Source of the DNA: Candidatus Vogelbacteria bacterium CG10_big_fil_rev_8_21_14_0_10_51_16
Lineage (GTDB): Bacteria > Patescibacteriota > Minisyncoccia > Phycocordibacterales > JACRKE01
Length of the DNA: 46,489 bases
Direction: 5' to 3'
NCBI GenBank assembly: GCA_002774795.1
Contig: PCYI01000001.1
Coordinates: 12,116 to 58,604 of the forward strand
A program made the translations under genes and the position numbers. How positions within the stretch are numbered: position 1 is the first letter of the stretch; every line of letters starts with the position of its first letter. Below are positions 1-44,824 of the stretch, one piece after another. Under the pieces are notes generated by a model. That model saw only the letters and a list, made by a program, of their open reading frames with translations. It searched no databases and was not told where the DNA came from.

Positions 1-30
1 GAGGTAGTGGTTGAGCCACGTATCACCAAT

Positions 31-86
31 CTACCCCCTCCCAGCCTCCCCCTGGCCAGGGGGAGGGGCAATTTCGTAATTCACAG
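31..86. mobile_element. Partial copy of GC-palindrome MITE family A (core CCTCCCCCTGGCCAGGGGGAGGGG plus right terminal repeat AATTTCGTAATTCACAG)
   Basis: Nearly identical to the right half of the full-length copy at 43933-44106. The left end may lie beyond the window edge. Confidence 0.6.
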
Positions 87-115
87 TCTTATTACGCACG
101 AGTTGGGAGTCTCGC

Positions 116-3987: not shown

Positions 3988-5424
3988 ATGGAGTTTTCGA
4001 TAGATAAAAAAGCACAAGGCGCTCTTGCTCGAGCCGGTATCTTGACCACTGGCCACGGGGTCATCAATACGCCCGCTTTTGTAACAGTCGGCACCAAGGC
4101 GACCGTGAAAGCCCTCACCCCAGAAGAGGTGGCCTCTCTGGGCGGAGAGGTGGTGCTCGCAAACACCTACCACCTATACCTCCAACCGGGCGACGAGCTT
4201 ATCTGCAAGTCGGGTGGTCTACATAAATTCATGAACTGGTATGGTCCCACCATGACCGACTCCGGCGGGTTCCAGGTATTCTCCCTTGGCGTAGCGCTTG
4301 GATCGGGAATCTCCAAACTCTCCAAGCCCTACGCCACGCAGATTACCGCAAATGTAGAGCGGATAGGCGCGGATAGAACCCCTCCACGCAATACCCTAAA
4401 AATATTCACAAATGAGCCCGCATCCAGTCCGCGTCAGTCGGCGTCTAGTCCGCAAATGTCCGTGGCGCACGATGGGCCAAAGTCCCTAGTGCGCATCGAT
4501 GAGGATGGCGTGACCTTTCGGTCTCACCTCGACGGCTCGAAGCATCTCTTTACGCCGGAGCGCTCGATGGAGATCCAGCACAATATCGGCGCCGATATCA
4601 TCTTTGCGTTCGACGAATGCACCTCCCCCACAGCATCCTATGACTACCAACGCGAAGCGATGGCCCGCACCCACCGTTGGGCAGAGCGCTCGCTCGCTCG
4701 CCACCGCGAGCTTGAAACAAGCGACCCCCTTCCATACACGCAAGCGTTATTCGGCATCGTACAAGGTGGCCGACACCGAGATTTGCGTGAAGAGAGCGCC
4801 CGTTTCATTGGCTCTCTTGCCTTTGACGGCTTCGGCATCGGTGGCTCTTTTGATAAGGCAGACATGGGAGACGCTGTCTCGTGGGTAAACAGACTCTTGC
4901 CTGAAGAAAAACCGAGACACCTTTTAGGTATCGGCGACCCGTGTGACCTTTTTTTGGCAGTCGAGAACGGTTGCGACCTCTTTGACTGTGTGGCCCCCAC
5001 CCGCCAAGCGCGCAATGGCTCTCTCTACACAGCACAAGGCCGCATCAATATCACGAACGCCCGCTATCGCACCGACCTTTCCCCTATCGACCCCACCTGC
5101 ACCTGTAGTGTTTGTACGGGTGGTATGCCCCATCCCCCGGCCGGGGGAGGGCTGGGGTGGGGTAGATCTTATGGTCCTAACCCATACCTTCCTTCGCAAA
5201 CTGCTTCACCAATCGGCATTAGCAAGATGTCCTACACCCGCGCCTACCTCGCCCACCTTTTTCGGGCCGAAGAGCTCCTCGCCTACCGCTTAGCCTCCAT
5301 CCACAACCTCCACTTTATTGTCAATCTGGTGAAAAAAATGCGCGCCTCACTTCTCAATGACACCTTCTTTAAGCTTAAAGAAGAGTTTCTGCAAACATAC
5401 GGCAATTCAACCACAAACCGATAG
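3988..5424 (+). CDS. tgt: Queuine tRNA-ribosyltransferase (tRNA-guanine transglycosylase) carrying two in-frame insertions
   Basis: MEFSIDKK...ARAGILTTGHGVINTPAFVTVGT, TDSGGFQVFSL, FAFDECTS, zinc motif CTCSVC...H, C-terminal IHNLHF. See findings for the insertions. Confidence 0.9.
   Translation: MEFSIDKKAQGALARAGILTTGHGVINTPAFVTVGTKATVKALTPEEVASLGGEVVLANTYHLYLQPGDELICKSGGLHKFMNWYGPTMTDSGGFQVFSLGVALGSGISKLSKPYATQITANVERIGADRTPPRNTLKIFTNEPASSPRQSASSPQMSVAHDGPKSLVRIDEDGVTFRSHLDGSKHLFTPERSMEIQHNIGADIIFAFDECTSPTASYDYQREAMARTHRWAERSLARHRELETSDPLPYTQALFGIVQGGRHRDLREESARFIGSLAFDGFGIGGSFDKADMGDAVSWVNRLLPEEKPRHLLGIGDPCDLFLAVENGCDLFDCVAPTRQARNGSLYTAQGRINITNARYRTDLSPIDPTCTCSVCTGGMPHPPAGGGLGWGRSYGPNPYLPSQTASPIGISKMSYTRAYLAHLFRAEELLAYRLASIHNLHFIVNLVKKMRASLLNDTFFKLKEEFLQTYGNSTTNR
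4404..4464 (+). repeat. Family D element (ATTCACAA head plus four GTCCGNN units spaced 10/11/10 bp) inside the tgt ORF, in frame
   Basis: Units start at 4427, 4437, 4448 and 4458. Alignable to the intergenic copy at 22478-22542; the four-unit array also matches 7346-7384. Confidence 0.65.
5128..5165. repeat. Family A palindrome core (reverse orientation) inside the tgt ORF, in frame
   Basis: CCCCATCCCCCGGCCGGGGGAGGGCTGGGGTGGGGTAG versus the reverse complement of the intergenic core, CCCCTCCCCCTGGCCAGGGGGAGGTTGGGAGGGGGTAG. Confidence 0.7.
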
Positions 5425-20800: not shown

Positions 20801-21061
20801 CGGCGTTTCGTAGGTGAGTTTTTGCGCTTTCGCGTGAAGCTCATCAAAGCTTGGCGGGTCAAGACGAAAACCGACAAACTTAAGCTCAAATTTCTTGCCT
20901 GAGTAGTCTTTAATATTCGCAAACTCTTCAAATACTTCTGTCACTCCTTTTTCCAAGAGTTGCTTATACGAAGCTAACTGCATCTCGATTGGAGGAGGTG
21001 TCTCTACCAACGGTTCACGATATTCAGCAAACCGTTTCTGTACAAGCTTGGGTGTAGACAT
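17873..21061 (-). CDS. rpoB: DNA-directed RNA polymerase subunit beta
   Basis: 1062 aa. [33 protein letters not shown]. Directly upstream of rpoC. Confidence 0.97.
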   Translation of the reverse strand: [1062 protein letters not shown]

Positions 21062-21121
21062 ATAAATAGGAATTAGGAAAGGAATTAGGCTCTAAAATAA
21101 TTACAAACAATCCTCAGACGC

Positions 21122-21149
21122 AAAAAAACGGAGTCAGCCAATTCTCCGT
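21122..21149 (-). terminator. Intrinsic terminator between the trmD region and rpoB
   Basis: The minus strand reads ACGGAG-aattggctga-CTCCGT followed by TTTTTTT. Confidence 0.65.
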
Positions 21150-21448
21150 CTCACGTTTTTCGTGATGCTGTTTAATAAAAGAAAGAGTGCACGAAATACT
21201 CTTTGGTTTAAGAGGCTCTCCACAAGAAGCTTTTGCTGCTTGAATGAAGACCCCTATAGTGGCCACCTTCAGACCACTACTATTATCAGACCACTACTAT
21301 TAAGTGGAACGATTGCAAAACAGCCAAAACTCAATCGTGCAATGTTGATAACCAGTATAGTAAAATAGAGAAAGCTTGTCAACCACTTTTCCACTTGCAA
21401 TTCTAGAGAGCCAGCCTACTGGCTCCAGTCCCATTTTGGAAAAATGGA

Positions 21449-21610
21449 GTCTGTCGCCGAATAGACTTTCAAGCTAGTTTTCCCAAAGTGAGTGCGAGAC
21501 GAAGGTGAAAAAACGGAATAGTAGCTTAGCTACCATGAGTATTTTTCACCGAGTCGCAGCCGCACTTTGGGGAAAATAGTCGGAATGGATATTTGGTGAC
21601 AGGCCCAAAT
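21449..21610. repeat. Family C 162-bp rod-like structured repeat, copy 1 (just downstream of the trmD stop)
   Basis: Almost identical to 22929-23090. Nested inverted repeats run along the whole length. Confidence 0.85.
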
Positions 21611-21625
21611 GGGTCCGAGGATGAG

Positions 21626-22363
21626 TTATCGTCTCCTGCTTATCTTCCACTCCTCAATCTTTTTGGCATGTCCACTCAAGAGCACTTTTGGGACCTGGTA
21701 TTTCCTGCCTTGTTTACCCTGACCCGATGGTGGCCATTCAAACAGTTCCGGGCGAGTGTACACCTCGCTCGTTGACACTCTTCTCTCCTCCACCGACGCA
21801 TCTTTTCCAAGCACGCCAGAAATCTGTCGGGCAACTGCGTCAAGCATAATCATTGACGGCAACTCTCCCCCGGTGAGCACGTAGGGACCGACAGAGATCT
21901 CCTTTGCCCGCAAAACCTTTTTCACCCGCGCGTCAATCCCCTCGTAACGGCCACATATCAAAATAATGTCGGTCTGTTTTTTGGCCATTTTTCGCGCCAT
22001 TGTGTTTGTAAACTGCTCCCCCGCAGGAGCAAGTATGAAGGTTTGGAGTTTTGTGTTTTTGTGATTTGTGTTTTGTTTGGTTTTTGCCTGCCCGACTCGA
22101 ATGACCGAGTCGTTCGGGCGGGTGTTTTGAGCTTTGTGTTTTGCCACTTCTACGGCTCGCAAAAGTGGCTCTGCCAACATCACCATTCCCGGCCCGCCAC
22201 CGTACGGCCTCCCGTCTGTCTTGTGCCATTTATCCTTGGCAAAGTCGCGCGGATTATAGAACAGCACTGCTATCTTCCTTGCCTTAATGGCCCGCGCCAA
22301 AATCGAGTCGCCCAAATAGGACGTAAACAGCTTCGGAAAGGTGGTGATGATGTGGAAAGTCAT
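21626..22363 (-). CDS. trmD: tRNA (guanine37-N1)-methyltransferase with an in-frame repeat-derived insertion
   Basis: RPYGGGPGMVM, ICGRYEGIDARV, LTGGELPSMIMLDAV. Confidence 0.92.
   Translation of the reverse strand: MTFHIITTFPKLFTSYLGDSILARAIKARKIAVLFYNPRDFAKDKWHKTDGRPYGGGPGMVMLAEPLLRAVEVAKHKAQNTRPNDSVIRVGQAKTKQNTNHKNTKLQTFILAPAGEQFTNTMARKMAKKQTDIILICGRYEGIDARVKKVLRAKEISVGPYVLTGGELPSMIMLDAVARQISGVLGKDASVEERRVSTSEVYTRPELFEWPPSGQGKQGRKYQVPKVLLSGHAKKIEEWKISRRR
22042..22143. mobile_element. Family B element (CACAAA-rich arms plus CCCGAACGACTCGGTC hairpin) inside the trmD ORF, in frame
   Basis: The core cccgaacgactcggtcattcgagtcgggc (minus strand) matches 33932-33960. The ACTCCAAA / CACAAA motifs match intergenic copies. 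Confidence 0.7.
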
Positions 22364-22440
22364 GCGGGTAGGCTTCGGGCGCTAAGCTCTAGACATTAGC
22401 AGATACAGAATATCATAAGATTGAGGAAAAACGAGCCCCA

Positions 22441-22466
22441 AGAAAGCCGCCCGAGGGCGGCTTTCT
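22441..22466. terminator. Hairpin AGAAAGCCGCC-cgag-GGCGGCTTTCT between the KH gene and trmD
   Basis: 11-bp perfect stem with A/T-rich flanks on both strands. Confidence 0.5.
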
Positions 22467-22504
22467 TTCAGTCATTATTACAATTCACAATATGGGCTGT
22501 ATTC

Positions 22505-22542
22505 GTCCGCGAGAGTCCGTTCCCTGTCCGCGTTAGTCGGTG
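22505..22542 (+). repeat. Family D phased array (GTCCGCG-type x4, spacing 10/11/10)
   Basis: Units start at 22505, 22515, 22526 and 22536, preceded by the same AATTCACAAT head as the tgt copy. Confidence 0.75.
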
Positions 22543-22561
22543 GCAGTTGTAGCCTCCCGGG

Positions 22562-22897
22562 CTACAACTGCAAATCCGCCATTGCCTCATCCACCGTCTT
22601 CATGGTAGGCACTGAGGCCCCTCCTTCTGCCGGAGCCAAGCGACCACCATCGGGCTCTTCTATCTTCAAGTTCACTCTCGCGTTGTACTTCATGCCAACG
22701 ACGCGCAAAAGAGTACGGACAGCCTTGGCGGTGTTGCCACTGCGACCGATAACCTTGCCCATGTCCTCTCGATGCACCTTGAGCGTAAGGAGAACGCCCA
22801 TTTCGTCTACCGAGCGATTGACGACCACTTCCTCTGAATGGTCCACGATGGCCTTAATAACATACTCTAAAAACTCCTGGTCCTTTTCTGCTGACAT
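22562..22897 (-). CDS. KH-domain RNA-binding protein (UPF0109/YlqC-like) with a C-terminal extension
   Basis: LEYVIKAIVDH...MGKVIGRSGNTAKAVRTLL. Start at MSAEK (22897). The longer ORF-track version reads through repeat family C. Confidence 0.85.
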   Translation of the reverse strand: MSAEKDQEFLEYVIKAIVDHSEEVVVNRSVDEMGVLLTLKVHREDMGKVIGRSGNTAKAVRTLLRVVGMKYNARVNLKIEEPDGGRLAPAEGGASVPTMKTVDEAMADLQL

Positions 22898-22928
22898 ACG
22901 GATTACTTTCTTATCTGCTACGAATAGG

Positions 22929-23090
22929 GTCTGTCGCCGAATAGACTTTCGAGCTAGTTTCCCCAAAGTGCGAGCGAGACGAAGGTGAAAAAACGGAATA
23001 GTAGCATAGCTACCATGAGTATTTTTCACCGAGTCGCAGTAGCACTTTGGGGAAAATAGTCGGAATGGATATTTGGTGACAGGCCCAAAT
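22929..23090. repeat. Family C 162-bp rod-like structured repeat, copy 2 (rpsP-KH spacer)
   Basis: See 21449-21610. Confidence 0.85.
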
Positions 23091-23137
23091 AGTAATGGCT
23101 TGCAGCCGAGCAGTTATACTGCAAGTTTATTATAACT

Positions 23138-23176
23138 ACAAAAAACACAAAACACAAATATCACAAAACTCCAAAG
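23138..23176. repeat. Family B fragment (CACAAA repeats plus ACTCCAAAG)
   Basis: acaaaaaacacaaaacacaaatatcacaaaactccaaag. Confidence 0.6.
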
Positions 23177-23256
23177 AGCCTAGACATCAGATTCCGGAAC
23201 TTCAGGGAAATTAGGCTGGAGTTTCGCGCTTAAGTCTGACCTCTATCGACCGGCAG

Positions 23257-23682
23257 TTAATCTTTCTTCTCTTCTGGGACCTCTTCTGGCAACACCAACT
23301 CTGTAGGTATTGTTTCCGGCTCTGTCGTTGTCTCTTCCTCTCTTTCCGTCGAAACCTCTTCTGTAGGTTTCTCCTCTTTCTGCTCCACCACCGGAGCAAC
23401 TTCTACAATCTTCTGAGGCTTATTGGCGAAGGTGGTCTTATCCCCCTCCATGAGCTTGTGACTAATTAAAATATTCTTGGCAGTGTCTGATGGCTGAGCA
23501 CCGTGAGTAAGCCAGTGTTTGATGCGTTCGCTCTTAAGCTCGGCTTTGCCAAAACGCGCATTGTAGGAGCCGAGCACCTCCAAGAACTTCCCGCTTTGTG
23601 GGCCGTTTTGTTTATCGGTGACAACAAGACGAAATGAGGGATCGTTCGTCCGGCCGACACGCTGAAGTCTGATCATGAGCAT
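23257..23682 (-). CDS. rpsP: 30S ribosomal protein S16 with an acidic C-terminal extension
   Basis: MLMIRLQRVGRTNDPSFRLVV. Start at 23682. A TATAGT box lies 9 nt upstream of the ATG, suggesting a short or absent leader. Confidence 0.9.
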   Translation of the reverse strand: MLMIRLQRVGRTNDPSFRLVVTDKQNGPQSGKFLEVLGSYNARFGKAELKSERIKHWLTHGAQPSDTAKNILISHKLMEGDKTTFANKPQKIVEVAPVVEQKEEKPTEEVSTEREEETTTEPETIPTELVLPEEVPEEKKD

Positions 23683-23774
23683 AGGTGTATTACTATAGCA
23701 AAGACCCCGCCGGTTGTCTATAAAAGCGAATAGTGGTAGTCTATCACTTGGCTTGGACACTCTAACCTCACCAC

Positions 23775-26256: not shown

Positions 26257-26321
26257 CTTTGAGTTACGAAATGCGCGTTTTTCCCTCCCCTGGCCAGGGG
26301 GAGGGGCTTCGTAATTCACAG
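26257..26321. mobile_element. Short (65 bp) family A MITE flanked by a perfect 7-bp target-site duplication TCATTAG
   Basis: TCATTAG at 26250-26256 and at 26322-26328. Terminal inverted repeats are CTTTGAGTTACGAAAT and CTTCGTAATTCACAG. Confidence 0.8.
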
Positions 26322-28676: not shown

Positions 28677-28682
28677 CTCCTA

Positions 28683-28824
28683 CTGTGAGTTACGAAATTG
28701 CCCCTCCCCCTGGCCAGGGGGAGGTTGGGAGGGGGTAGGATGCAGAAATACGGCCCAAAATCTACCCCACCCTAGCCCTCCCCTGGCCAAGGGAGGGAAT
28801 AGGTCCGAATTTCGTAATTCAAAG
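28683..28824. mobile_element. Family A MITE (142 bp) with a 6/7 matching flanking 7-mer (TCTCCTA / TGTCCTA)
   Basis: Terminal repeats are CTGTGAGTTACGAAATT and AATTTCGTAATTCAAAG. There are two internal GC palindromes. Confidence 0.8.
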
Positions 28825-28827
28825 TGT

Positions 28828-28862: not shown

Positions 28863-29564
28863 CTACCTCCCCCATCCTCTGGCGGTGAGGCCCCGCTCGG
28901 CGGCATCCTGCTCCGCCTCCTGCTTGGAGTGACCGTTGCCTTCGGCCACTTTTTTGTTACCAATAAAAAGACCGACCGTGAACTGTTTTTCGTGGTCAGG
29001 CCCTGTCTCTGAGAGCAACTGGTATGAGGGAGTAATGCCATCAAACTCCTGCGCCTTCTCCTGAAAAAAACTTTTTGAGTCTCGCCAGAGCTGTTTTTTG
29101 ACGATACCTTCGAGCTTGGGAACAAGCTGGGCCAAAATAAACTCTTTTGCGGACTGATATCCTTGGTCGAGGTAAATAGCCCCTATCACAGACTCAAAGG
29201 TGTTCGCAAGGATAGACTGCCTGGCCCGACCGGTATCTTTTGCTTCTCCTCTTGAAAGCAAAAGAAAGTTGTCCATATGAAGCTCGCGAGCGGCCTCGCT
29301 GATGCTTATCGTATTTACAAGGGCGGCTCGGTATGAAGTAAGCTCGCCCTCTTGCTTGTGGGGATACTCGCTATAAAGATACTCGGTAATGACAAGCTCT
29401 AAGACCGCGTCGCCCAGGAACTCCAGGCGCTCGTTGTGGCCAAGGCCAAATGATTGGTTTTCGTTTAAATACGAACGGTGCGTAAAAGCCTGTACAAGGA
29501 GGTCTTTGTTCTTAAACGAAGCATTGATGAGGCGCGCAAACTGCGCAAAGTCTGGAAGTTCCAT
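28863..29564 (-). CDS. rnc: Ribonuclease III
   Basis: Signature ERLEFLGDAVLELV. C-terminal dsRBD (GPDHEKQFTV...GNGHSKQEAEQDAA). Confidence 0.93.
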   Translation of the reverse strand: MELPDFAQFARLINASFKNKDLLVQAFTHRSYLNENQSFGLGHNERLEFLGDAVLELVITEYLYSEYPHKQEGELTSYRAALVNTISISEAARELHMDNFLLLSRGEAKDTGRARQSILANTFESVIGAIYLDQGYQSAKEFILAQLVPKLEGIVKKQLWRDSKSFFQEKAQEFDGITPSYQLLSETGPDHEKQFTVGLFIGNKKVAEGNGHSKQEAEQDAAERGLTARGWGR

Positions 29565-29646: not shown

Positions 29647-29732
29647 CCCCTCTCCTGGCCAGGAGAGGGTTAGGGTGAGGTGGGTTGCGGGAAGCCTACC
29701 CCCTCCCAACCTCCCCCTGGCTAGGGGGAGGA
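29647..29732. repeat. Family A palindrome modules (both cores, no terminal repeats)
   Basis: CCCCTCTCCTGGCCAGGAGAGGGTTAGGGTGAGGTGGG ... CTACCCCCTCCCAACCTCCCCCTGGCTAGGGGGAGG. Confidence 0.7.
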
Positions 29733-29751
29733 GCACTCACGGCAAACCAAT

Positions 29752-30693
29752 TTATGACTGCTGATAAATAAACGTAATCGCTTTAGTGATAATAGGCAAA
29801 ACGTCGTCGTAAATCTTGAGCGACTCCACCTCGTCAAGTTCGAACCAGCGAGCGTCGTCGAGGCCGGATGAGTCGACGTGGAGCTCGTTCTTCACCTTGG
29901 CTTTAAGGAGAAAGTACATCACCTGTCGACGTACCTTGCCAACCTTTGGGTCGTTCGCGATGTACTCGTTCGTGCCTAAAGTTATGCCGTCCGACTCCAC
30001 CGCAAGCCCCATTTCCTCCTTTGCCTTGCGTACGGCGGCCCCCTCAGGCTCCTCCCCCTCCTGCACGTGACCTTTAGAAAGAGTCCAATAGCCAAAGATG
30101 TCGTGAACGAAAGCAAGAGAGACACTCTCCCCTTCTCGCGCGTACACCACTCCACCGGCCACTTTTTCAATAAGCATCTCCTTAAGCTCATTCTCGCTGA
30201 AGTCGGACGGCTTATTCTGGCCGGGTTTCTTTTTTTTCTTGGCCACCCTATCCTCCTCTGGCTCTGCCTCCGGTCCGCCCATCTCGCGGTAGACTGTGCC
30301 GAGAACACCATTTACAAAGCGCCCCGACGACTCCCCGCCGAACGTCTTGGCGAGCTCAATCGCTTCATTGATTGCCACCCGAGACGGCACCTCTTTTTTA
30401 CTTGTAAACAAGAGCTCATAAAGACCGATGCGCAAAATGTTGCGATCTACAATGGAAATCTTATCAATAGGCCACTCCGGAGCGGCCTTCATGATAACAT
30501 CATCAAGTACCGACTGTTTTTCAAGGATTGTTTGAGTGAGTGTTTCTACAAAACTGCGGTCGTTCAATCCCGGGGCAAACTCTGCTATGTTGCGGTCTAT
30601 AATCTTACCCATCTCGGTCGCGGGTATGTCATTAAAATCGCGCTCAAAAAGAGACTGCATCACGATACTTCTGGAAAGGTGGCGATTGGCCAT
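29752..30693 (-). CDS. nusB: NusB (N-terminal) fused to a Nudix hydrolase domain (C-terminal)
   Basis: NusB-like: RSIVMQSLFERDF...VAINEAIELAKTFGGESSGRFVNGVLG. A Lys-rich linker follows. Nudix box: GHVQEGEEPEGAAVRKAKEEMGL. Confidence 0.8.
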   Translation of the reverse strand: MANRHLSRSIVMQSLFERDFNDIPATEMGKIIDRNIAEFAPGLNDRSFVETLTQTILEKQSVLDDVIMKAAPEWPIDKISIVDRNILRIGLYELLFTSKKEVPSRVAINEAIELAKTFGGESSGRFVNGVLGTVYREMGGPEAEPEEDRVAKKKKKPGQNKPSDFSENELKEMLIEKVAGGVVYAREGESVSLAFVHDIFGYWTLSKGHVQEGEEPEGAAVRKAKEEMGLAVESDGITLGTNEYIANDPKVGKVRRQVMYFLLKAKVKNELHVDSSGLDDARWFELDEVESLKIYDDVLPIITKAITFIYQQS

Positions 30694-31033: not shown

Positions 31034-31116
31034 AGTGAATACAGGATACCTCAAATGTAAATAATGAGCAAGTACATAGAGCAAGAGTACCTGATTAACA
31101 GACTGACCTACCCTAA

Positions 31117-31148
31117 AGCACAGAACACAGAACACAAAACTCCAAAAA
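31117..31148. repeat. Family B fragment ((CACAGAA)n ... ACTCCAAAA) upstream of rpmF
   Basis: agcacagaacacagaacacaaaactccaaaaa. Confidence 0.55.
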
Positions 31149-32557: not shown

Positions 32558-32934
32558 GCGCCTCACCTCCCTTCAGTCCATCAGTTTCAAGCCGACAGAC
32601 TATTTTGGATAGGTAGGATAGTTAAAACCTGATTTCAGTTGTAGGGTCCAGTTGATTAGATACGTTCCGAGGCCTTGCCTCGTCTCTCTTGGCTGGCTGC
32701 CAAAAGAGGTCTAACCTACGCTAATGTCAATGGTATCATATTATATGGTTCTTGTCAAATATGAAAACAGCTCTGCCTTTTCCTTATTTCCGTCCTCGAT
32801 GAGCTGTTTTTATCCACAGTATCAGACCACACACTCACCGAACCATGGCTCGTAAAAGCACAAAACACGGAGCACCTGCCCGCAATGCTACGCATAAGCG
32901 TTGCAGGCGGGCAAAAACCAAAGGCGCCAAGTCC

Positions 32935-33811: not shown

Positions 33812-33924
33812 ATGAGTGGCTATAACCGCCACCTCTGCCCGGTCCCCGCGACCGGGCTTTCTCTTGCCCGAAAACAGTTATCCCCAGAGACAAAATTGGT
33901 CTGCTATAATGGCGACTACGCAGA

Positions 33925-34068
33925 GCACCAGCCCGAACGACTCGGTCGTTCATGTCGGGCGGACAGAACCCCAAGTACGGTCGCAAAGCACAAAGTCCCA
34001 AAGCACAAGACTCCAAAGAATACAGATGCATTTTTTGAAGTTTTGTGTCATTTGTGCTTTGTGTTTTC
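33925..34068. mobile_element. Family B element (hairpin CCCGAACGACTCGGTCGTTCATGTCGGGC plus inverted CACAAAG-rich arms) in the dnaE 5-prime region
   Basis: The core matches the trmD-internal copy. The arms aaagcacaaagtcccaaagcacaagactccaaag and gaagttttgtgtcatttgtgctttgtgtttt are inverted. Confidence 0.7.
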
Positions 34069-37482: not shown

Positions 37483-37613
37483 TAAGGAGCTATACTCACC
37501 ATATGGACCTGTTCAAAAAAACAACCGCGACAACAACGACCACCGCGACTACTTAGCGGGAGTTCTTGTTGTGCGCCACAGGAGCTCCCGCGAGGGGCTT
37601 TTCTTTTGCAACG

Positions 37614-37660
37614 TTTGGAGTTTTGTGTTTTGTGCTTTGTGCTTTGTGCTTTGTGTTTTA
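37614..37660. repeat. Family B fragment (TTTGGAGTTTTGTG plus (CTTTGTG)n) upstream of thrS
   Basis: tttggagttttgtgttttgtgctttgtgctttgtgctttgtgtttt. Confidence 0.6.
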
Positions 37661-40203: not shown

Positions 40204-40226
40204 TACTCCTGCCTGGGCATACCTCC

Positions 40227-40346
40227 ATGAGTTCCGAAGACTTCTACAAATCCCTCCCCGCCCTCGAAAACTTCGGTGACGTGGCGGACTTTTCGCGGTA
40301 TGTGCCGGCGCCGAACGAGGTAGTTAAATGTATCTGGCACCCTTAA
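40227..40346 (+). pseudogene. Relic 5-prime fragment of a DUF3095-type gene (39 codons, then stop)
   Basis: 40227-40312 aligns with 41075-41160, about 75 of 86 positions identical by eye. Translation MSSEDFYKSLPALENFGDVADFSRYVPAP then diverges. Confidence 0.7.
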
Positions 40347-41045: not shown

Positions 41046-41074
41046 CTACTGCCCACTGCCTACTCCATACTGCC
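41046..41074 (+). repeat. Four CTACTGC-type heptamers abutting the DUF3095 start codon
   Basis: ctactgc ccactgc ctactcc atactgc c ATG. Confidence 0.7.
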
Positions 41075-42262
41075 ATGAATCCCGAAGACTTCTACAAATC
41101 CATCCCCGCTCTTGAAAAGTTCGCTGATGTAGCGGATTTTTCGAGGTATGTGCCGGCGCCAGACGACTGGTATGTGGTGGTGACCGATATTAAGGGCTCT
41201 ACTAAAGCGGTGGAGGCGGGAAAGTATAAAGAGGTGAACGCCGTGGGAGCGGCCTCCATCATCGCTGTCTTAAACGTGGCCAAGGAGGTGGACATCCCTT
41301 TTGTTTTCGGCGGAGACGGCGCCACCATGCTCATCCCGCCTACCCTTGTCGAAGCCACCAAAGGGGCGCTCGCCGCCGCCCGCGAACTCTCCCTCGACTA
41401 CTTCGAGCTTGAGCTACGAGTAGGGCTTGTGCCACTTACAAAGATTCCCCCCGAAAGTAAAATCCGCGTAGCCAAGTTTCGGGCTTCGCCCCACTACCAT
41501 CAAGCCATGTTTGCCGGAAACGGCGTGGTGATAGCCGAGAAACTCATTAAAGACCCGGCTACAAACACCCTGTACGAGGTGCCGGCCGACCACCCAAGCA
41601 GTGGGCAGTTTAGAGGTTTTGAGTGCCGTTGGAATGATATCGCCTCCCCGCACGGCGAGACGGTGGCGCTTTTGGTAAAAGTGGTTGCCGGCGACATCAA
41701 AGAGCGGGCCGCGCGTTACTGCGATATCCTCGCCGAGATCGAGCGTATCTACGGCAGTGAAGCCGACTACCACCCCATTACCGTCAAACATCTCACCCTT
41801 GTTACCCAACCGCCAAAACTAAACACTGAGACCTACATCCGCGCTGGGCGCAAAAGTGGCCGCAAAGGAGATCTTGAGCGCTTTTGGTATCGCACTAAAA
41901 TTTGGCTCACCGACCTTTATGTCAATCTCGCCATGCGCACTCCTTTCAGTAAAAACGACTTTAATTTGTCCGTTTACAAAAATCTGCTTGTGGCCACCTG
42001 CGACTTCCGTAAGTACGACGATGCCCTGCGCATGATTCTTGCCGGTACCCCCGCGCAACGCCGCGAGCTCGAAGAGTATCTAGAAGAGCTCCACCGTGAT
42101 GGCACGCTCGCTTACGGCACCTTCGCTACCGACCGGGCCCTCATGACCTGTCTCGTCTTCGAGCGCTATGGTAAACAGGTGCACTTCATAGACGGCGCCG
42201 ATGGTGGCTACACGCGAGCTTCAAAGCCATTTAAGGAAAGACTAAAAAAGCTGTCGGCATAA
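41075..42262 (+). CDS. DUF3095-family protein (N-terminal nucleotidyl-cyclase-like region)
   Basis: WYVVVTDIKGSTKAVEAGKYKEVNAVGAASIIAVLN...FVFGGDGATMLIP. The family assignment is from memory, not from a search. Confidence 0.5.
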   Translation: MNPEDFYKSIPALEKFADVADFSRYVPAPDDWYVVVTDIKGSTKAVEAGKYKEVNAVGAASIIAVLNVAKEVDIPFVFGGDGATMLIPPTLVEATKGALAAARELSLDYFELELRVGLVPLTKIPPESKIRVAKFRASPHYHQAMFAGNGVVIAEKLIKDPATNTLYEVPADHPSSGQFRGFECRWNDIASPHGETVALLVKVVAGDIKERAARYCDILAEIERIYGSEADYHPITVKHLTLVTQPPKLNTETYIRAGRKSGRKGDLERFWYRTKIWLTDLYVNLAMRTPFSKNDFNLSVYKNLLVATCDFRKYDDALRMILAGTPAQRRELEEYLEELHRDGTLAYGTFATDRALMTCLVFERYGKQVHFIDGADGGYTRASKPFKERLKKLSA

Positions 42263-43932: not shown

Positions 43933-44106
43933 CTTTGAGTTACGAAATGTGAGTTTTTCCCTCCCCTGGTCAGGGAAGGAGTTCCTCCCTCTCCTGCCCG
44001 AGGAGAGGGTTGGGGTGGGGTGGGAGGGGTGGGGTAGCTTTAGAGCCATACTACCCCCTCCCAACCTCCCCCTGGCCAGGGGGAGGGGCAATTTCGAAAT
44101 TCACAG
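43933..44106. mobile_element. Full-length (174 bp) family A MITE flanked by a perfect 7-bp target-site duplication TCTAAAT
   Basis: TCTAAAT at 43926-43932 and at 44107-44113. Terminal repeats are CTTTGAGTTACGAAAT and AATTTCGAAATTCACAG. There are three internal GC palindromes. Confidence 0.85.
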
Positions 44107-44107
44107 T

Positions 44108-44824
44108 CTAAATAGAACCTGCGGAAATTATCCGCTCGGCGTAGACTGCCACTCTTTTGCCATATGTCTTTTCGTCTCTAATCCAATCGCCACCACAGGT
44201 GATGAGCACCAGTTCTTCTTTTCCTTCTGTGCGGAAGATGCGAGCGAGAGGGACGGCATCGTGAGAATAGTGAGCGACTTCGCGAACGACGTAAGAAAAA
44301 TCCTCGCCGGCGTAGTTCGTAATTATAATAAAGTCACCAATGGCAAGATCGTCCAGATGGTAAAATACAGCCGGTAATGCAAGACTATTGTCTAAATGGC
44401 CCGCAAATACTACCGTGCCCGGTTCGCCCGGGGCCGCTCCCCCCTTGTACCAAGCGACATCACGATAAATCCGGCGACCGGAGGGCGTGCCCATATCCCC
44501 AGATGCCGTCAGCCCCACTCTTTGCACATTGGTCTCTATTTTCAGAGCTGGAATAGCTAGTCGGACCGGTGTCTCGTCTGCCGGTGGAGGAGGCGGAGGA
44601 GTAGGTGGCGCAGGAATCTTTTTCTCAGCTCGGCTCGCCACATCCTCTCCGCCAGCAATCGCCTCTCGTAAAGTAGCGACGAAACCGGTCCGCGGGAGAG
44701 TGTATGTAGCTGTCTCTGTGATTACGGCCACCGCCCCTGGGTTCGCGTTTAAAACAGAGCGTCCGAAAGCCGCCAATGAAATACCGACAATGAGGAAACC
44801 TGTGGCGAGGAGTATCTTTTTCAT
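44108..44824 (-). CDS. Sortase (class F-like)
   Basis: N-terminal TM. VVFAGHLD (His), LVLITCGG (Cys), RVAVYAERI (Arg). Confidence 0.8.
   Translation of the reverse strand: MKKILLATGFLIVGISLAAFGRSVLNANPGAVAVITETATYTLPRTGFVATLREAIAGGEDVASRAEKKIPAPPTPPPPPPADETPVRLAIPALKIETNVQRVGLTASGDMGTPSGRRIYRDVAWYKGGAAPGEPGTVVFAGHLDNSLALPAVFYHLDDLAIGDFIIITNYAGEDFSYVVREVAHYSHDAVPLARIFRTEGKEELVLITCGGDWIRDEKTYGKRVAVYAERIISAGSI

Follow-up and report, generated by a model that had tools for sequence, protein, structure and literature searches.

The ends of Tn3-family transposons have a conserved 5'-GGGGT box and the family inserts with a 5-bp stagger; long ends are also known, as in TnXax1, where ends of 92 bp start with GAGGG. 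Tn3-derived miniature inverted-repeat elements (MITEs), called TIMEs, have 5-6-bp duplications and long RNA hairpins (PMC4133298). The Correia elements (CREE) of Neisseria are co-transcribed with neighboring genes and their hairpin can be bound or cut by RNase III, and Correia ends can create promoters (PMC2649163). SPRITE elements of the pneumococcus carry terminator-like sequences (PMC10969869, PMC3049150), and ERIC of enterobacteria is said, in a paper that cites the claim, to alter mRNA stability.

The stretch of DNA analyzed here (the window, 46,489 nucleotides) comes from a groundwater bacterium with a tiny genome, a Candidatus Vogelbacteria-like member of the Patescibacteria/Parcubacteria, and contains two near-identical units close to trmD. 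Both very probably belong to a family of 160-nt MITEs, DNA transposons that do not encode their own means of movement; the family is treated here as previously uncatalogued. This reading is based on the constant length of 160 nt, the inverted ends, the AT-rich duplications of 5 bp, and the absence of the element in syntenic relatives. A MITE is an ordinary kind of unit; the family itself is without earlier description.

Like TIMEs and the Tn3 mobile insertion cassettes, the element is non-coding and intergenic, with inverted ends (PMC4133298, PMC4337579). Its 5-bp duplication is comparable to the 5-6 bp of TIMEs (for example, AACAT and AAGGA), and it likewise forms a long hairpin, the RNA hairpins predicted for TIMEs having -70 to -115 kcal/mol (PMC4133298). 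The element is shorter, however (160 nt versus 262 nt for the TIME), its host belongs to the Patescibacteria rather than to Pseudomonas, and no Tn3-family transposase was seen in the sampled contigs. Most TIMEs occur as a single copy, a trait ascribed to target immunity (PMC4133298), whereas the element has at least nine copies, two of them 1.3 kb apart, and so many copies would not be expected from classic Tn3 behavior.

Correia elements resemble the element as dispersed intergenic MITEs of approximately 100-160 nt with inverted ends and a conserved core (PMC2649163). One copy, at locus L022, has an outward promoter-like match (GCGACA-18-TATAGT), which is similar to the Correia trait of promoters at the ends. 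Correia elements duplicate TA, while the duplication here is 5 bp, and there is no sequence similarity, so the element lacks both marks of a Correia element; no IHF-type site was recognized either. ERIC/IRU and RUP/SPRITE are, like the element, imperfect palindromes (approximately 100-130 nt) that are intergenic and transcribed (PMC10969869, PMC3049150), but their sequences are unrelated to it and their duplication lengths and hosts differ.

The repeated unit, its fold, and its surroundings

A repeat search of the window returned a two-copy direct repeat (21443-21610 and 22923-23090) with 95% identity, and pairwise alignment of the copies showed that this identity drops sharply at either edge. 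Searching the window with the unit by blastn gave these two copies only, together with self-complementary matches, because the unit is a palindrome. The initial annotation had described two near-identical, self-folding units of 162 bp. The copies are indeed alike, with eight differences (unit positions 2, 25, 35, 45, 47, 80, 114, and 115), and each folds as a single rod; the real unit, however, is 160 nt, the last 4 nt of the 162-bp interval being part of a target-site duplication of 5 bp. Coordinates of the features are given in Table 1. All nine full copies (two in the window and seven elsewhere) are exactly 160 nt and align without gaps. The ends in all copies are GGGTCTGTCGCC...GGCGACAGGCCC, inverted, with the terminal 12 nt almost unchanging across the family, and the terminal inverted repeat GGGTCTGTCGCCGAATA pairs with TATTCGGCGACAGGCCC. 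At 160 nt, the unit cannot encode a transposase. It has only one open frame (53 codons, no known family), and when the peptide read from the open minus-strand frame was searched for gene calls across the other copies, there were no candidates.

Table 1. Positions of the element copies, their parts, and neighboring genes in the window
Feature	Coordinates	Strand	Remarks
Probable MITE, copy 1, 160 nt	21447-21606	+	14 nt past trmD stop; 59 nt ahead of rpoB promoter-like -35
Left target-site duplication, copy 1, AAATG	21442-21446		Identical 5-mer on opposite side
Right target-site duplication, copy 1, AAATG	21607-21611		Equals left 5-mer
Left terminal inverted repeat/outer helix, copy 1, GAGTCTGTCGCCGAATA	21447-21463	+	Pairs with 21590-21606
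Right terminal inverted repeat, copy 1, TATTTGGTGACAGGCCC	21590-21606	+	Two window-specific C-to-T changes give G:T pairs
Near-invariant 64-nt core, copy 1 (element positions 50-113)	21496-21559	+	A6/T5-flanked apical hairpin 21518-21536
Probable MITE, copy 2, 160 nt	22927-23086	+	rpsP-KH spacer, 24 nt upstream of KH start codon
Left target-site duplication, copy 2, GAATA	22922-22926		4/5 positions match right side
Right target-site duplication, copy 2, AAATA	23087-23091		4/5 versus left
Left terminal inverted repeat, copy 2, GGGTCTGTCGCCGAATA	22927-22943	+	From fold and family alignment
Right terminal inverted repeat, copy 2	23070-23086	+	From fold and family alignment
Near-invariant 64-nt core, copy 2	22976-23039	+	Apical hairpin 22998-23016
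rpoB promoter-like site, TTGACA-17-TATACT	21354-21382	-	Kept in relatives
trmD	21626-22363	-	Pfam tRNA_m1G_MT, E=1e-35; homologues named TrmD
KhpA-type KH-domain gene	22562-22897	-	Pfam KH_KhpA-B
rpsP	23257-23760	-	Pfam Ribosomal_S16
RNase III gene	28863-29564		From annotation

When folded, each window copy forms one long hairpin, in which the stems named in the initial annotation and its three outer-stem G:T pairs are present. The plus strands of copies 1 and 2 fold at -81.4 and -89.4 kcal/mol (z=-10.4 and -13.5 against dinucleotide shuffles) and the minus strands at -59.2 and -70.6 kcal/mol (z=-6.4 and -9.9). Over all folds computed, the plus strand ranges from -77 to -81 kcal/mol in copy 1 and from -88 to -89 kcal/mol in copy 2, with about -58 and -69 to -71 kcal/mol, respectively, for the minus strand. 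The annotation had also argued from G:U pairing that the plus strand is the RNA. In keeping with this argument, the plus strand fold is better than the minus strand fold by 8-22 kcal/mol in all nine copies, and mismatch events, by the author's own event count, number approximately 12 for G.T versus 3 for A.C (binomial p=0.035). However, of the outer-stem G:T pairs in the window copies (4/157, 10/151, and 13/148), two are C-to-T changes found only in those two copies and are not family-wide.

Variable columns are much rarer in the core (4/64) than in the arms (35/96; Fisher p=9e-6). A simple MITE in which only the ends matter would be predicted to show the opposite pattern, rather than arms that vary around an invariant core. 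Double compensatory changes occur at seven stem pairs, a number reached in 0/500 shuffles; all of these pairs are within the arms (helix 1) and most are contributed by a single diverged copy, L020. The variant at L032 reflects either arm-to-arm copying or an assembler artifact that mimics such copying. Read in the mRNA sense, both window copies have a hairpin followed by 4 nt and then TTTTTT, and the same motif is present in other copies; in copy 1 this terminator-like hairpin and T-run are in the core, on the minus strand. The apical tip hairpin has 7-8 pairs, three of which are G-C, with a gap of 4 nt to the U-run, which on the minus strand is near 21512 in copy 1 and near 22992 in copy 2. 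When the whole rod forms, an A-run pairs with this U-run. The core helices comprise pairs 52-54/107-109, 58-68/93-104, and 72-79/83-90. No promoter-like site was found inside the unit and none is consistently beside it.

The two copies were initially said to bracket trmD. They do flank this gene, but the KH gene is also inside the pair, since copy 2 follows the stop codon of rpsP and precedes the start of KH. The sequence at 21122-21149, which had been called the first strong terminator, is downstream of the rpoB promoter-like site and is not the operon terminator because it is within the conserved rpoB leader. The rpoB promoter-like site, conserved in relatives, shows that one transcription unit ends before copy 1 and another begins after it. 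Both 111-aa and 155-aa calls exist for the KH gene; the 155-aa call starts at 23029, inside the element, and is a spurious N-terminal extension into it. A tRNA/tmRNA scan of the window returned none.

Dispersed copies, target sites, and relatives

The metagenome collection was scanned with a degenerate end pattern, requiring an exact 22-nt degenerate match. The scan returned eight true loci and four chance matches, and the true loci gave seven new full copies and two partial copies at contig ends. The family therefore occupies at least nine distinct sites, counted on contigs of one genome or population, and all insertions are intergenic. With respect to neighboring genes, about five copies are antisense, two are sense, and two are in divergent regions. 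The contigs with other copies come from the same samples as the window, and the tetranucleotide signature of the other loci correlates with that of the window at r=0.86-0.92, compared with 0.89 between the halves of the window and 0.75-0.77 for relatives. The arrangement in the window is identical in independent JGI, ENA, and Logan assemblies. Short assemblies break within the element, as is expected for a dispersed repeat.

When the two 5-mers beside each copy are compared, 39 of 45 positions agree (permutation p<1e-5), and non-cognate pairs of 5-mers match on average at 1.5 of 5. Target-site duplications are perfect for five of the nine copies and match at 4/5 positions for three, while one copy (L017a) has none. 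The duplicated 5-mers are 80% A+T and the genome is 52% G+C. An nhmmer profile of the nine copies found no further diverged copies in the DNA collected in the analysis. In the genome collection, the exact 22-mer of the window variant had no matches and the degenerate end pattern had one chance match only, in a Prolixibacteraceae genome; the core and end patterns had no matches in viral contigs. The true matches of the end pattern in the metagenome collection were MITEs only. BLAST of the consensus against 72,556 plasmids, and also against phages, gave only chance matches of 24-28 nt, and no transposon end was among the plasmid matches.

Syntenic relatives at the family level, with TrmD 68-69% identical, have the order rpsP-KH-trmD-rpoB and lack the element at both sites. 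The spacer between trmD and the rpoB promoter is 52 nt in one of these (L024) versus approximately 243 nt in the window; at this level of TrmD identity the empty site is not readable to the base. Y1_Tnp genes adjoin the locus in relatives. To seek an allele without the element, contigs encoding exactly the same TrmD or KH protein, or the same MreB as adjoins another copy, were collected; no presence/absence polymorphism was seen, as every contig of the strain carries copies. The MITE alternative offered in the initial annotation is thus supported by the seven copies at unrelated intergenic sites, the cognate duplications, and the absence in syntenic relatives. The features seen correspond to those used to recognize MITEs: a length of less than about 500 bp, no coding capacity, terminal inverted repeats, copy-specific duplications, and several unrelated sites.

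Candidate transposase and competing readings

A DDE-type transposase acting in trans, with cuts staggered by 5 bp, would move the element. A Tn3-family-like enzyme is tentatively proposed as the likeliest mover, because the duplication is 5 bp, the targets are AT-rich, and the tip is GGGTCTG.CGC. The first 11 nt of the element (tip GGGTCTGTCGC) match positions 2-12 of the 38-bp end of Tn3 at 10 of 11 positions, with the Tn3 end taken from sequence verified as adjoining blaTEM. Both tips are G-rich (GGGTCTG.CGC in the element versus GGGGTCTGACGC in Tn3), although the element starts with GGG rather than GGGG and, by hand alignment, its inner 25 nt have no Tn3 match. Tn3 favors AT-rich targets, and we know of few other families in which a G-rich tip goes together with a duplication of 5 bp.

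Pfam searches of the larger window ORFs found no transposase, and there was no Tn3-type or matching-end transposase among the larger ORFs of L013-L023 (20 ORFs of other loci), and there is none in the existing annotation of L001/L029. Neither the window nor the sampled contigs, which total approximately 150 kb, contained an autonomous element with matching ends, and an exact 22-nt degenerate pattern found none in the genome, metagenome, and viral collections. The sole transposase seen belongs to an IS30-family IS (L017:2486-3515). This IS was rejected as the partner, since its 27-nt ends are unrelated and the IS30 family makes duplications of 2-3 bp. A composite transposon formed by the two L017 copies was also rejected, as the outer flanks do not match.

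Within the family, the two window copies appear to be sisters, having six derived substitutions in common, and would have inserted separately 1.3 kb apart. Both would be carried passively in minus-sense transcripts of the operon, copy 2 in the rpsP-KH spacer RNA and copy 1 in the 3' end of trmD. Each transcript would thereby gain a hairpin (-58 to -71 kcal/mol) whose tip weakly resembles a terminator, having a small hairpin, 4 nt, and U6. By analogy with Correia, ERIC, and SPRITE elements, such a hairpin could serve as a signal for processing, stability, or termination.

Several features of the fold might instead point to a structured non-coding RNA as the primary nature of the unit, transcribed from the plus strand antisense to the operon, with dispersal being secondary. 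The greater stability of the plus strand in every copy, the excess of G.T over A.C mismatches, the invariant core, and the seven double-compensated stem pairs all favor this reading, which is nevertheless very unlikely. Rfam has nothing on the element (the window and six other loci at the gathering score, and 21100-23300 at E<=10), there is no internal or consistently adjoining promoter-like site, and the orientation of the copies is mixed; these results go against the non-coding RNA alternative of the initial annotation. The exact length of 160 nt, the inverted ends, and the cognate 5-bp duplications are signatures of transposition. Many copies at random positions without covariation had been named as an outcome that would refute a non-coding RNA; the dispersed copies were found, but some covariation exists. 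This covariation comes mostly from L020, and covariation confined to the arms is also expected from matched transposase ends or from hairpin-templated correction. A related reading is that the hairpin is kept by selection on one strand, either as a structured plus-strand RNA or as a single-stranded transposition intermediate that still makes 5-bp duplications. It is suggested by the plus strand always being more stable, by G.T outnumbering A.C approximately fourfold, and by the arms being compensatory while the core is frozen, but it is distinctly unlikely, and we know of no described bacterial transposon that combines a single-stranded hairpin intermediate with 5-bp duplications. If it were true, the plus-strand RNA might be an antisense or processing signal adopted by a reduced genome.

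That the hairpin differs in stability between strands would also fit a single-strand mechanism such as that of a REP/BIME or IS200/IS605-derived palindrome moved by a Y1 enzyme (RAYT/TnpA) through single-stranded hairpins, and the Y1_Tnp genes beside the locus in relatives point the same way. REP/BIME and IS200/IS605-derived elements have subterminal hairpins but are not known to make target-site duplications or to have terminal inverted repeats, whereas the element has both of the latter. With no Y1_Tnp gene in the window or in other contigs sampled from the organism, and with a separate G+C-rich palindromic repeat family in the window that fits REP better, movement by Y1 is very improbable. 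Two copies in the same orientation 1.3 kb apart could arise by segmental duplication at the locus or as an assembly artifact of a single contig, but this is refuted by the identical arrangement in independent assemblies from JGI, ENA, and Logan and by the seven copies elsewhere; the duplicated 5-mers of the two window copies also differ from each other. The last reading would add to the MITE interpretation rather than replace it: the element may have been co-opted, with the hairpin acting as a terminator or attenuator of the operon or else as a signal for RNase III or for RNA stability. Copy 1 would then end the rpsP-KH-trmD transcript and copy 2 would damp read-through into KH-trmD. The hairpin, 4 nt, and TTTTTT in the mRNA sense in both window copies and others, the position of copy 1 exactly at the expected end of the operon and upstream of the rpoB promoter-like site, the RNase III gene within the window, and the nearly invariant 64-nt core that includes the hairpin are all consistent with co-option, as are the conserved core and the RNase III binding of Correia elements (PMC2649163) and the terminator-like sequences of SPRITE. 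However, the tip hairpin is weak, with a 4-nt gap and a U-run sequestered by the A-run in the rod, the 5:2 orientation relative to the upstream gene is not significant, and relatives do without the element. Co-option is conceivable but doubtful.

Mobile DNA in a very small genome

The genomes of Patescibacteria are very small and their mobile DNA has been little described. A search of full-text literature for miniature inverted-repeat together with Patescibacteria or candidate phyla radiation returned passing mentions and no work on MITEs in these organisms. For the practical analysis of such genomes, the element matters in that it breaks short-read assemblies and makes the KH protein appear longer at its N terminus than it is (155 aa versus 111 aa). 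A MITE family that is young and already has nine or more copies would mean that a small genome still tolerates bursts of transposition, with insertions reaching a core operon for ribosomal and tRNA-modification functions and the flank of the rpoB promoter. If the hairpin is a terminator or an RNase III site, then this family would be a compact case of a mobile element serving as operon punctuation.

Copies and insertion sites of the element

The near-identical, rod-like repeat pair described in the initial annotation was borne out. A repeat search of the window reported a single such two-copy direct repeat (21443-21610 and 22923-23090, 95% identity), pairwise alignment showed abrupt loss of similarity at both edges, and a sensitive blastn search with the unit as query, covering all 46 kb of the window, returned only the two copies and their self-complementary images. 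Each copy folds as a single long rod, at -81.4 and -89.4 kcal/mol on the + strand (z = -10.4 and -13.5 from dinucleotide shuffles) and -59.2 and -70.6 kcal/mol on the - strand (z = -6.4 and -9.9), so the repeat and the hairpin are both genuine and well past chance.

The window's own 22-mer had no match in the genome collection, and a degenerate pattern fitting both ends of both window copies (GYCTGTCRCCRAATAKMCWTTC) had a single one there, by chance. The same pattern found 12 stretches in the metagenome collection: four were chance matches with no wider similarity and eight contained the element. These eight gave seven full copies beyond the window pair, plus two partials at contig ends that repeat two of the seven. 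An nhmmer profile yielded no additional diverged copies in the DNA searched, and short assemblies recurrently break within the element. The new loci and the window organism come from a common sample series, and tetranucleotide correlation of these loci with the window is 0.86-0.92, compared with 0.89 between the window halves and 0.75-0.77 for family-level relatives; the preferred interpretation is that they belong elsewhere in the window organism's genome or population. One of the other copies lies next to an MreB that exactly matches a protein bearing the name Candidatus Vogelbacteria bacterium CG10_big_fil_rev, and the source names on TrmD and MreB homologues are Patescibacteria/Parcubacteria.

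Each of the nine units measures 160 nt exactly, without indels, and runs from GGGTCTGTCGCC to GGCGACAGGCCC. Cognate flanking 5-mers agree at 39 of 45 positions (non-cognate mean, 1.5 of 5), and none of 100,000 permutations gave a flank-match sum as high as that observed; these 5-mers are 80% A+T, and the window is 52% G+C. The copy without a duplication, L017a, is located in a repeat-rich spacer; in Tn3-derived miniature inverted-repeat transposable elements (TIMEs), missing direct repeats have been ascribed to recombination between copies (PMC4133298). Every insertion is intergenic, often 10-30 nt from a start or stop codon. Exact-length units, 5-bp duplications and intergenic sites are the signature of a miniature inverted-repeat transposable element (MITE), and the element is regarded as a new MITE family with a Patescibacteria host. 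At metagenome locus L023 (13038-13042), the insertion point of the copy coincides with the stop codon that ends an 80-aa gene, and the duplicated 5-mer provides a stop on both sides.

The nearest relatives found (TrmD 68-69% identical) are syntenic over the stretch that starts at RNase R, takes in rpsP, KH, trmD and rpoB and ends at rpoC, and have neither element-related sequence nor a comparable long inverted repeat at either MITE site. From the trmD stop to the conserved rpoB -35 is 52 nt in one relative (L024) versus ~243 nt in the window, with 165 nt of the excess consisting of the MITE and one duplication; in the rpsP/KH spacer, the MITE splits sequence that is alignable with relatives on both sides. 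The relatives are too divergent to define the empty site to the base, and no variation in presence or absence was seen within the strain.

Features of the window and of related loci (L016, L017 and L020-L023, metagenome loci with further MITE copies; L024 and L026, family-level relatives)
Feature	Location	Strand	Left / right 5-mer
MITE copy 1	window 21447-21606	+	AAATG / AAATG
MITE copy 2	window 22927-23086	+	GAATA / AAATA
MITE copy	L021		AACAA / AACAA
MITE copy	L017b		TTTTT / TTTTT
MITE copy	L016		ATACT / ATACT
MITE copy	L020		TTTCT / TTTCT
MITE copy	L022		CATAT / CATAC
MITE copy	L023		TAGAG / TAAAG
MITE copy	L017a		ATAAA / ACAGG
rpsP	window 23257-23760	-	
KhpA-type KH gene	window 22562-22897	-	
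trmD	window 21626-22363	-	
Extra residues within TrmD	window 22040-22135	-	
Promoter-like site TTGACA-17-TATACT, downstream of copy 1, conserved in two relatives	window 21382-21354	-	
rpoB upstream region	window 21061-21382 (-); L024:5720-5979; L026:6260-6679		
IS30-family insertion sequence (~1 kb; 27-nt inverted ends, 81% complementarity)	L017:2486-3515		
GT/CA-rich motif	window 22042-22082, 23134-23175, 31115-31146, 34034-34067, 37610-37659; L024:4236-4318, 5245-5283		
G+C-rich palindromic repeat	window 26-94, 5130-5170, 26257-26299, 28682-28825, 29691-29759, 43933-43975, 44046-44114; L017:5800-6080		
101-nt direct repeat	window 40218-40318, 41066-41166		
70-nt dispersed repeat	window 32854-32922; L022:8865-8933		

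RNA-like features of the element

The proposal that the unit is a structured ncRNA was not supported: an Rfam search gave no matching model, there is no sigma-70-like site within the unit, and the copies are of mixed orientation relative to neighbouring genes. Seven base pairs have changes on both sides, and none of 500 shuffles had as many; all seven are in the arm helix, and six are due to the diverged copy L020 alone. The same compensatory pattern would be expected from matched ends for one transposase, and also from arm-to-arm templated correction. Two contigs carry the same insertion as the L022 copy, and in one of these, from one assembly, 17 nt of the 5' arm is the perfect 3'-arm complement (L032:5112-5270, compared with L029:9708-9867). 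This arm replacement reflects either correction templated by the hairpin, within a subpopulation, or an artefact of the de Bruijn graph at a palindrome.

The + strand folds better than the - strand by 8-22 kcal/mol in every copy, and G.T outnumber A.C mismatches 12 to 3 (p = 0.035, on our count of independent events). The three G:T pairs that had been taken to mark the + strand as the RNA are present, but two of the three result from C-to-T changes that only the window copies have. The G.T excess and strand asymmetry are suggestive and unexplained. The central 64 nt has 4 variable columns, 3 of them in the apical loop, while 35 of the 96 arm columns vary (p = 9e-6 versus the core); L020 and L021 have 21 arm differences and only 2 in the core. 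A conserved core has been described likewise for Correia elements (PMC2649163). The compensatory changes, strand asymmetry and invariant core go beyond a plain MITE.

Candidate transposases

No transposase was found among the larger window ORFs (Pfam) or in the annotated regions of two long contigs, and a BLAST search of plasmids and phages with the consensus returned nothing. Of the larger ORFs at the other loci, 20 were scanned and one encodes a transposase, of the IS30 family (L017:2530-3480, 317 aa); its insertion sequence was rejected as the partner because its own ends show no relation to the MITE.

The Tn3 family, which has a 5-bp insertion stagger and tips with a conserved 5'-GGGGT box, is the strongest lead. 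Some members have long ends and variant tips, as in TnXax1 (GAGGG), whose cassettes are flanked by 5-bp duplications (PMC4337579). TIMEs have 5-6-bp duplications and long predicted hairpins (PMC4133298). The MITE tip has GGG where the Tn3 family has GGGG. For comparison by hand alignment, we used the 38-bp Tn3 end, a sequence that is exact in >5000 plasmids and adjoins blaTEM in NTP16: the MITE tip GGGTCTGTCGC agrees with positions 2-12 at 10 of 11 positions, but the inner part of the MITE end has no match. The MITE has at least nine copies, whereas TIMEs are mostly single-copy, which their authors ascribed to target immunity (PMC4133298), and the two window copies are 1.3 kb apart with six derived substitutions in common; like the GGG tip, these points count against the Tn3 lead. 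Given the tip, the copy number and the close window pair, the element is not filed in the TIME family; that it works like a TIME is the leading mechanism, held tentatively. The MITE was probably moved by a transposase making 5-bp staggered cuts.

Operon context and neighbouring repeats

The - strand order is rpsP, KH, trmD, then rpoB and rpoC. Copy 2 is in the rpsP/KH spacer, 24 nt 5' of the KH start, and copy 1 starts 14 nt past the trmD stop; the pair said to bracket trmD therefore does enclose it, together with KH rather than alone. Gene callers give the KH protein 155 aa instead of 111 aa, with the additional 44 residues running into the MITE. The hairpin and T-run at 21122-21149, initially assigned as the operon terminator, sits within the rpoB leader. 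This leader is conserved in two relatives, as is the promoter-like site before it, and has invariant blocks (GGTTATCAACATTGCACGATTGAG; TCGTGCACTCT) and a terminal hairpin and T-run directly before rpoB. It has no matching Rfam family, and is a candidate for a Parcubacteria rpoB leader or attenuator that has yet to be described.

The window has several other repeats. A loop of TrmD whose length varies among relatives holds ~25 additional residues (KHKAQNTRPNDSVIRVGQAKTKQNTNH), encoded by a GT-rich dispersed motif and then a palindrome (22076-22129) with a second, inverted copy at 33921-33974, in the spacer between RNase HII and dnaE; the arrangement resembles in-frame small-repeat insertion into a coding gene, of the kind known for Rickettsia palindromic elements. 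Spacers of the window and of the family-level relative L024 contain scattered copies of the GT/CA-rich motif (GGAGTTTTGTG...TTTGTGTTTTGTG), a candidate terminator-like or regulatory repeat; in the relative, two inverted copies form a hairpin directly after rpsP. The G+C-rich palindromic family (CCCCTCCC..CCCCTGGCCAGGGGGAGG), also in spacers, may be of REP type, since relatives have Y1_Tnp (RAYT-like) genes near the rpsP-KH-trmD locus. The 101-nt repeat (85% identity, 848 nt apart) lies around the DUF3095 gene start, and the 70-nt repeat is 93% identical between the window and L022.

Copy 1 is placed where the rpsP-KH-trmD transcript should end, and the sequence of relatives that aligns with the copy 2 site is AT-rich and -10-like. 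The operon RNA would carry the weaker - strand rod of both copies (-58 to -71 kcal/mol), with a tip consisting of a 7-8-bp hairpin, 4 nt and then U6. Correia, ERIC and SPRITE elements serve as models for the role of such hairpins (PMC2649163, PMC10969869, PMC3049150), and by analogy the MITE hairpin is a plausible candidate terminator, attenuator or RNase III/stability signal. What value remains in the element lies in its frozen core, its strand asymmetry and its two copies at core-operon boundaries.
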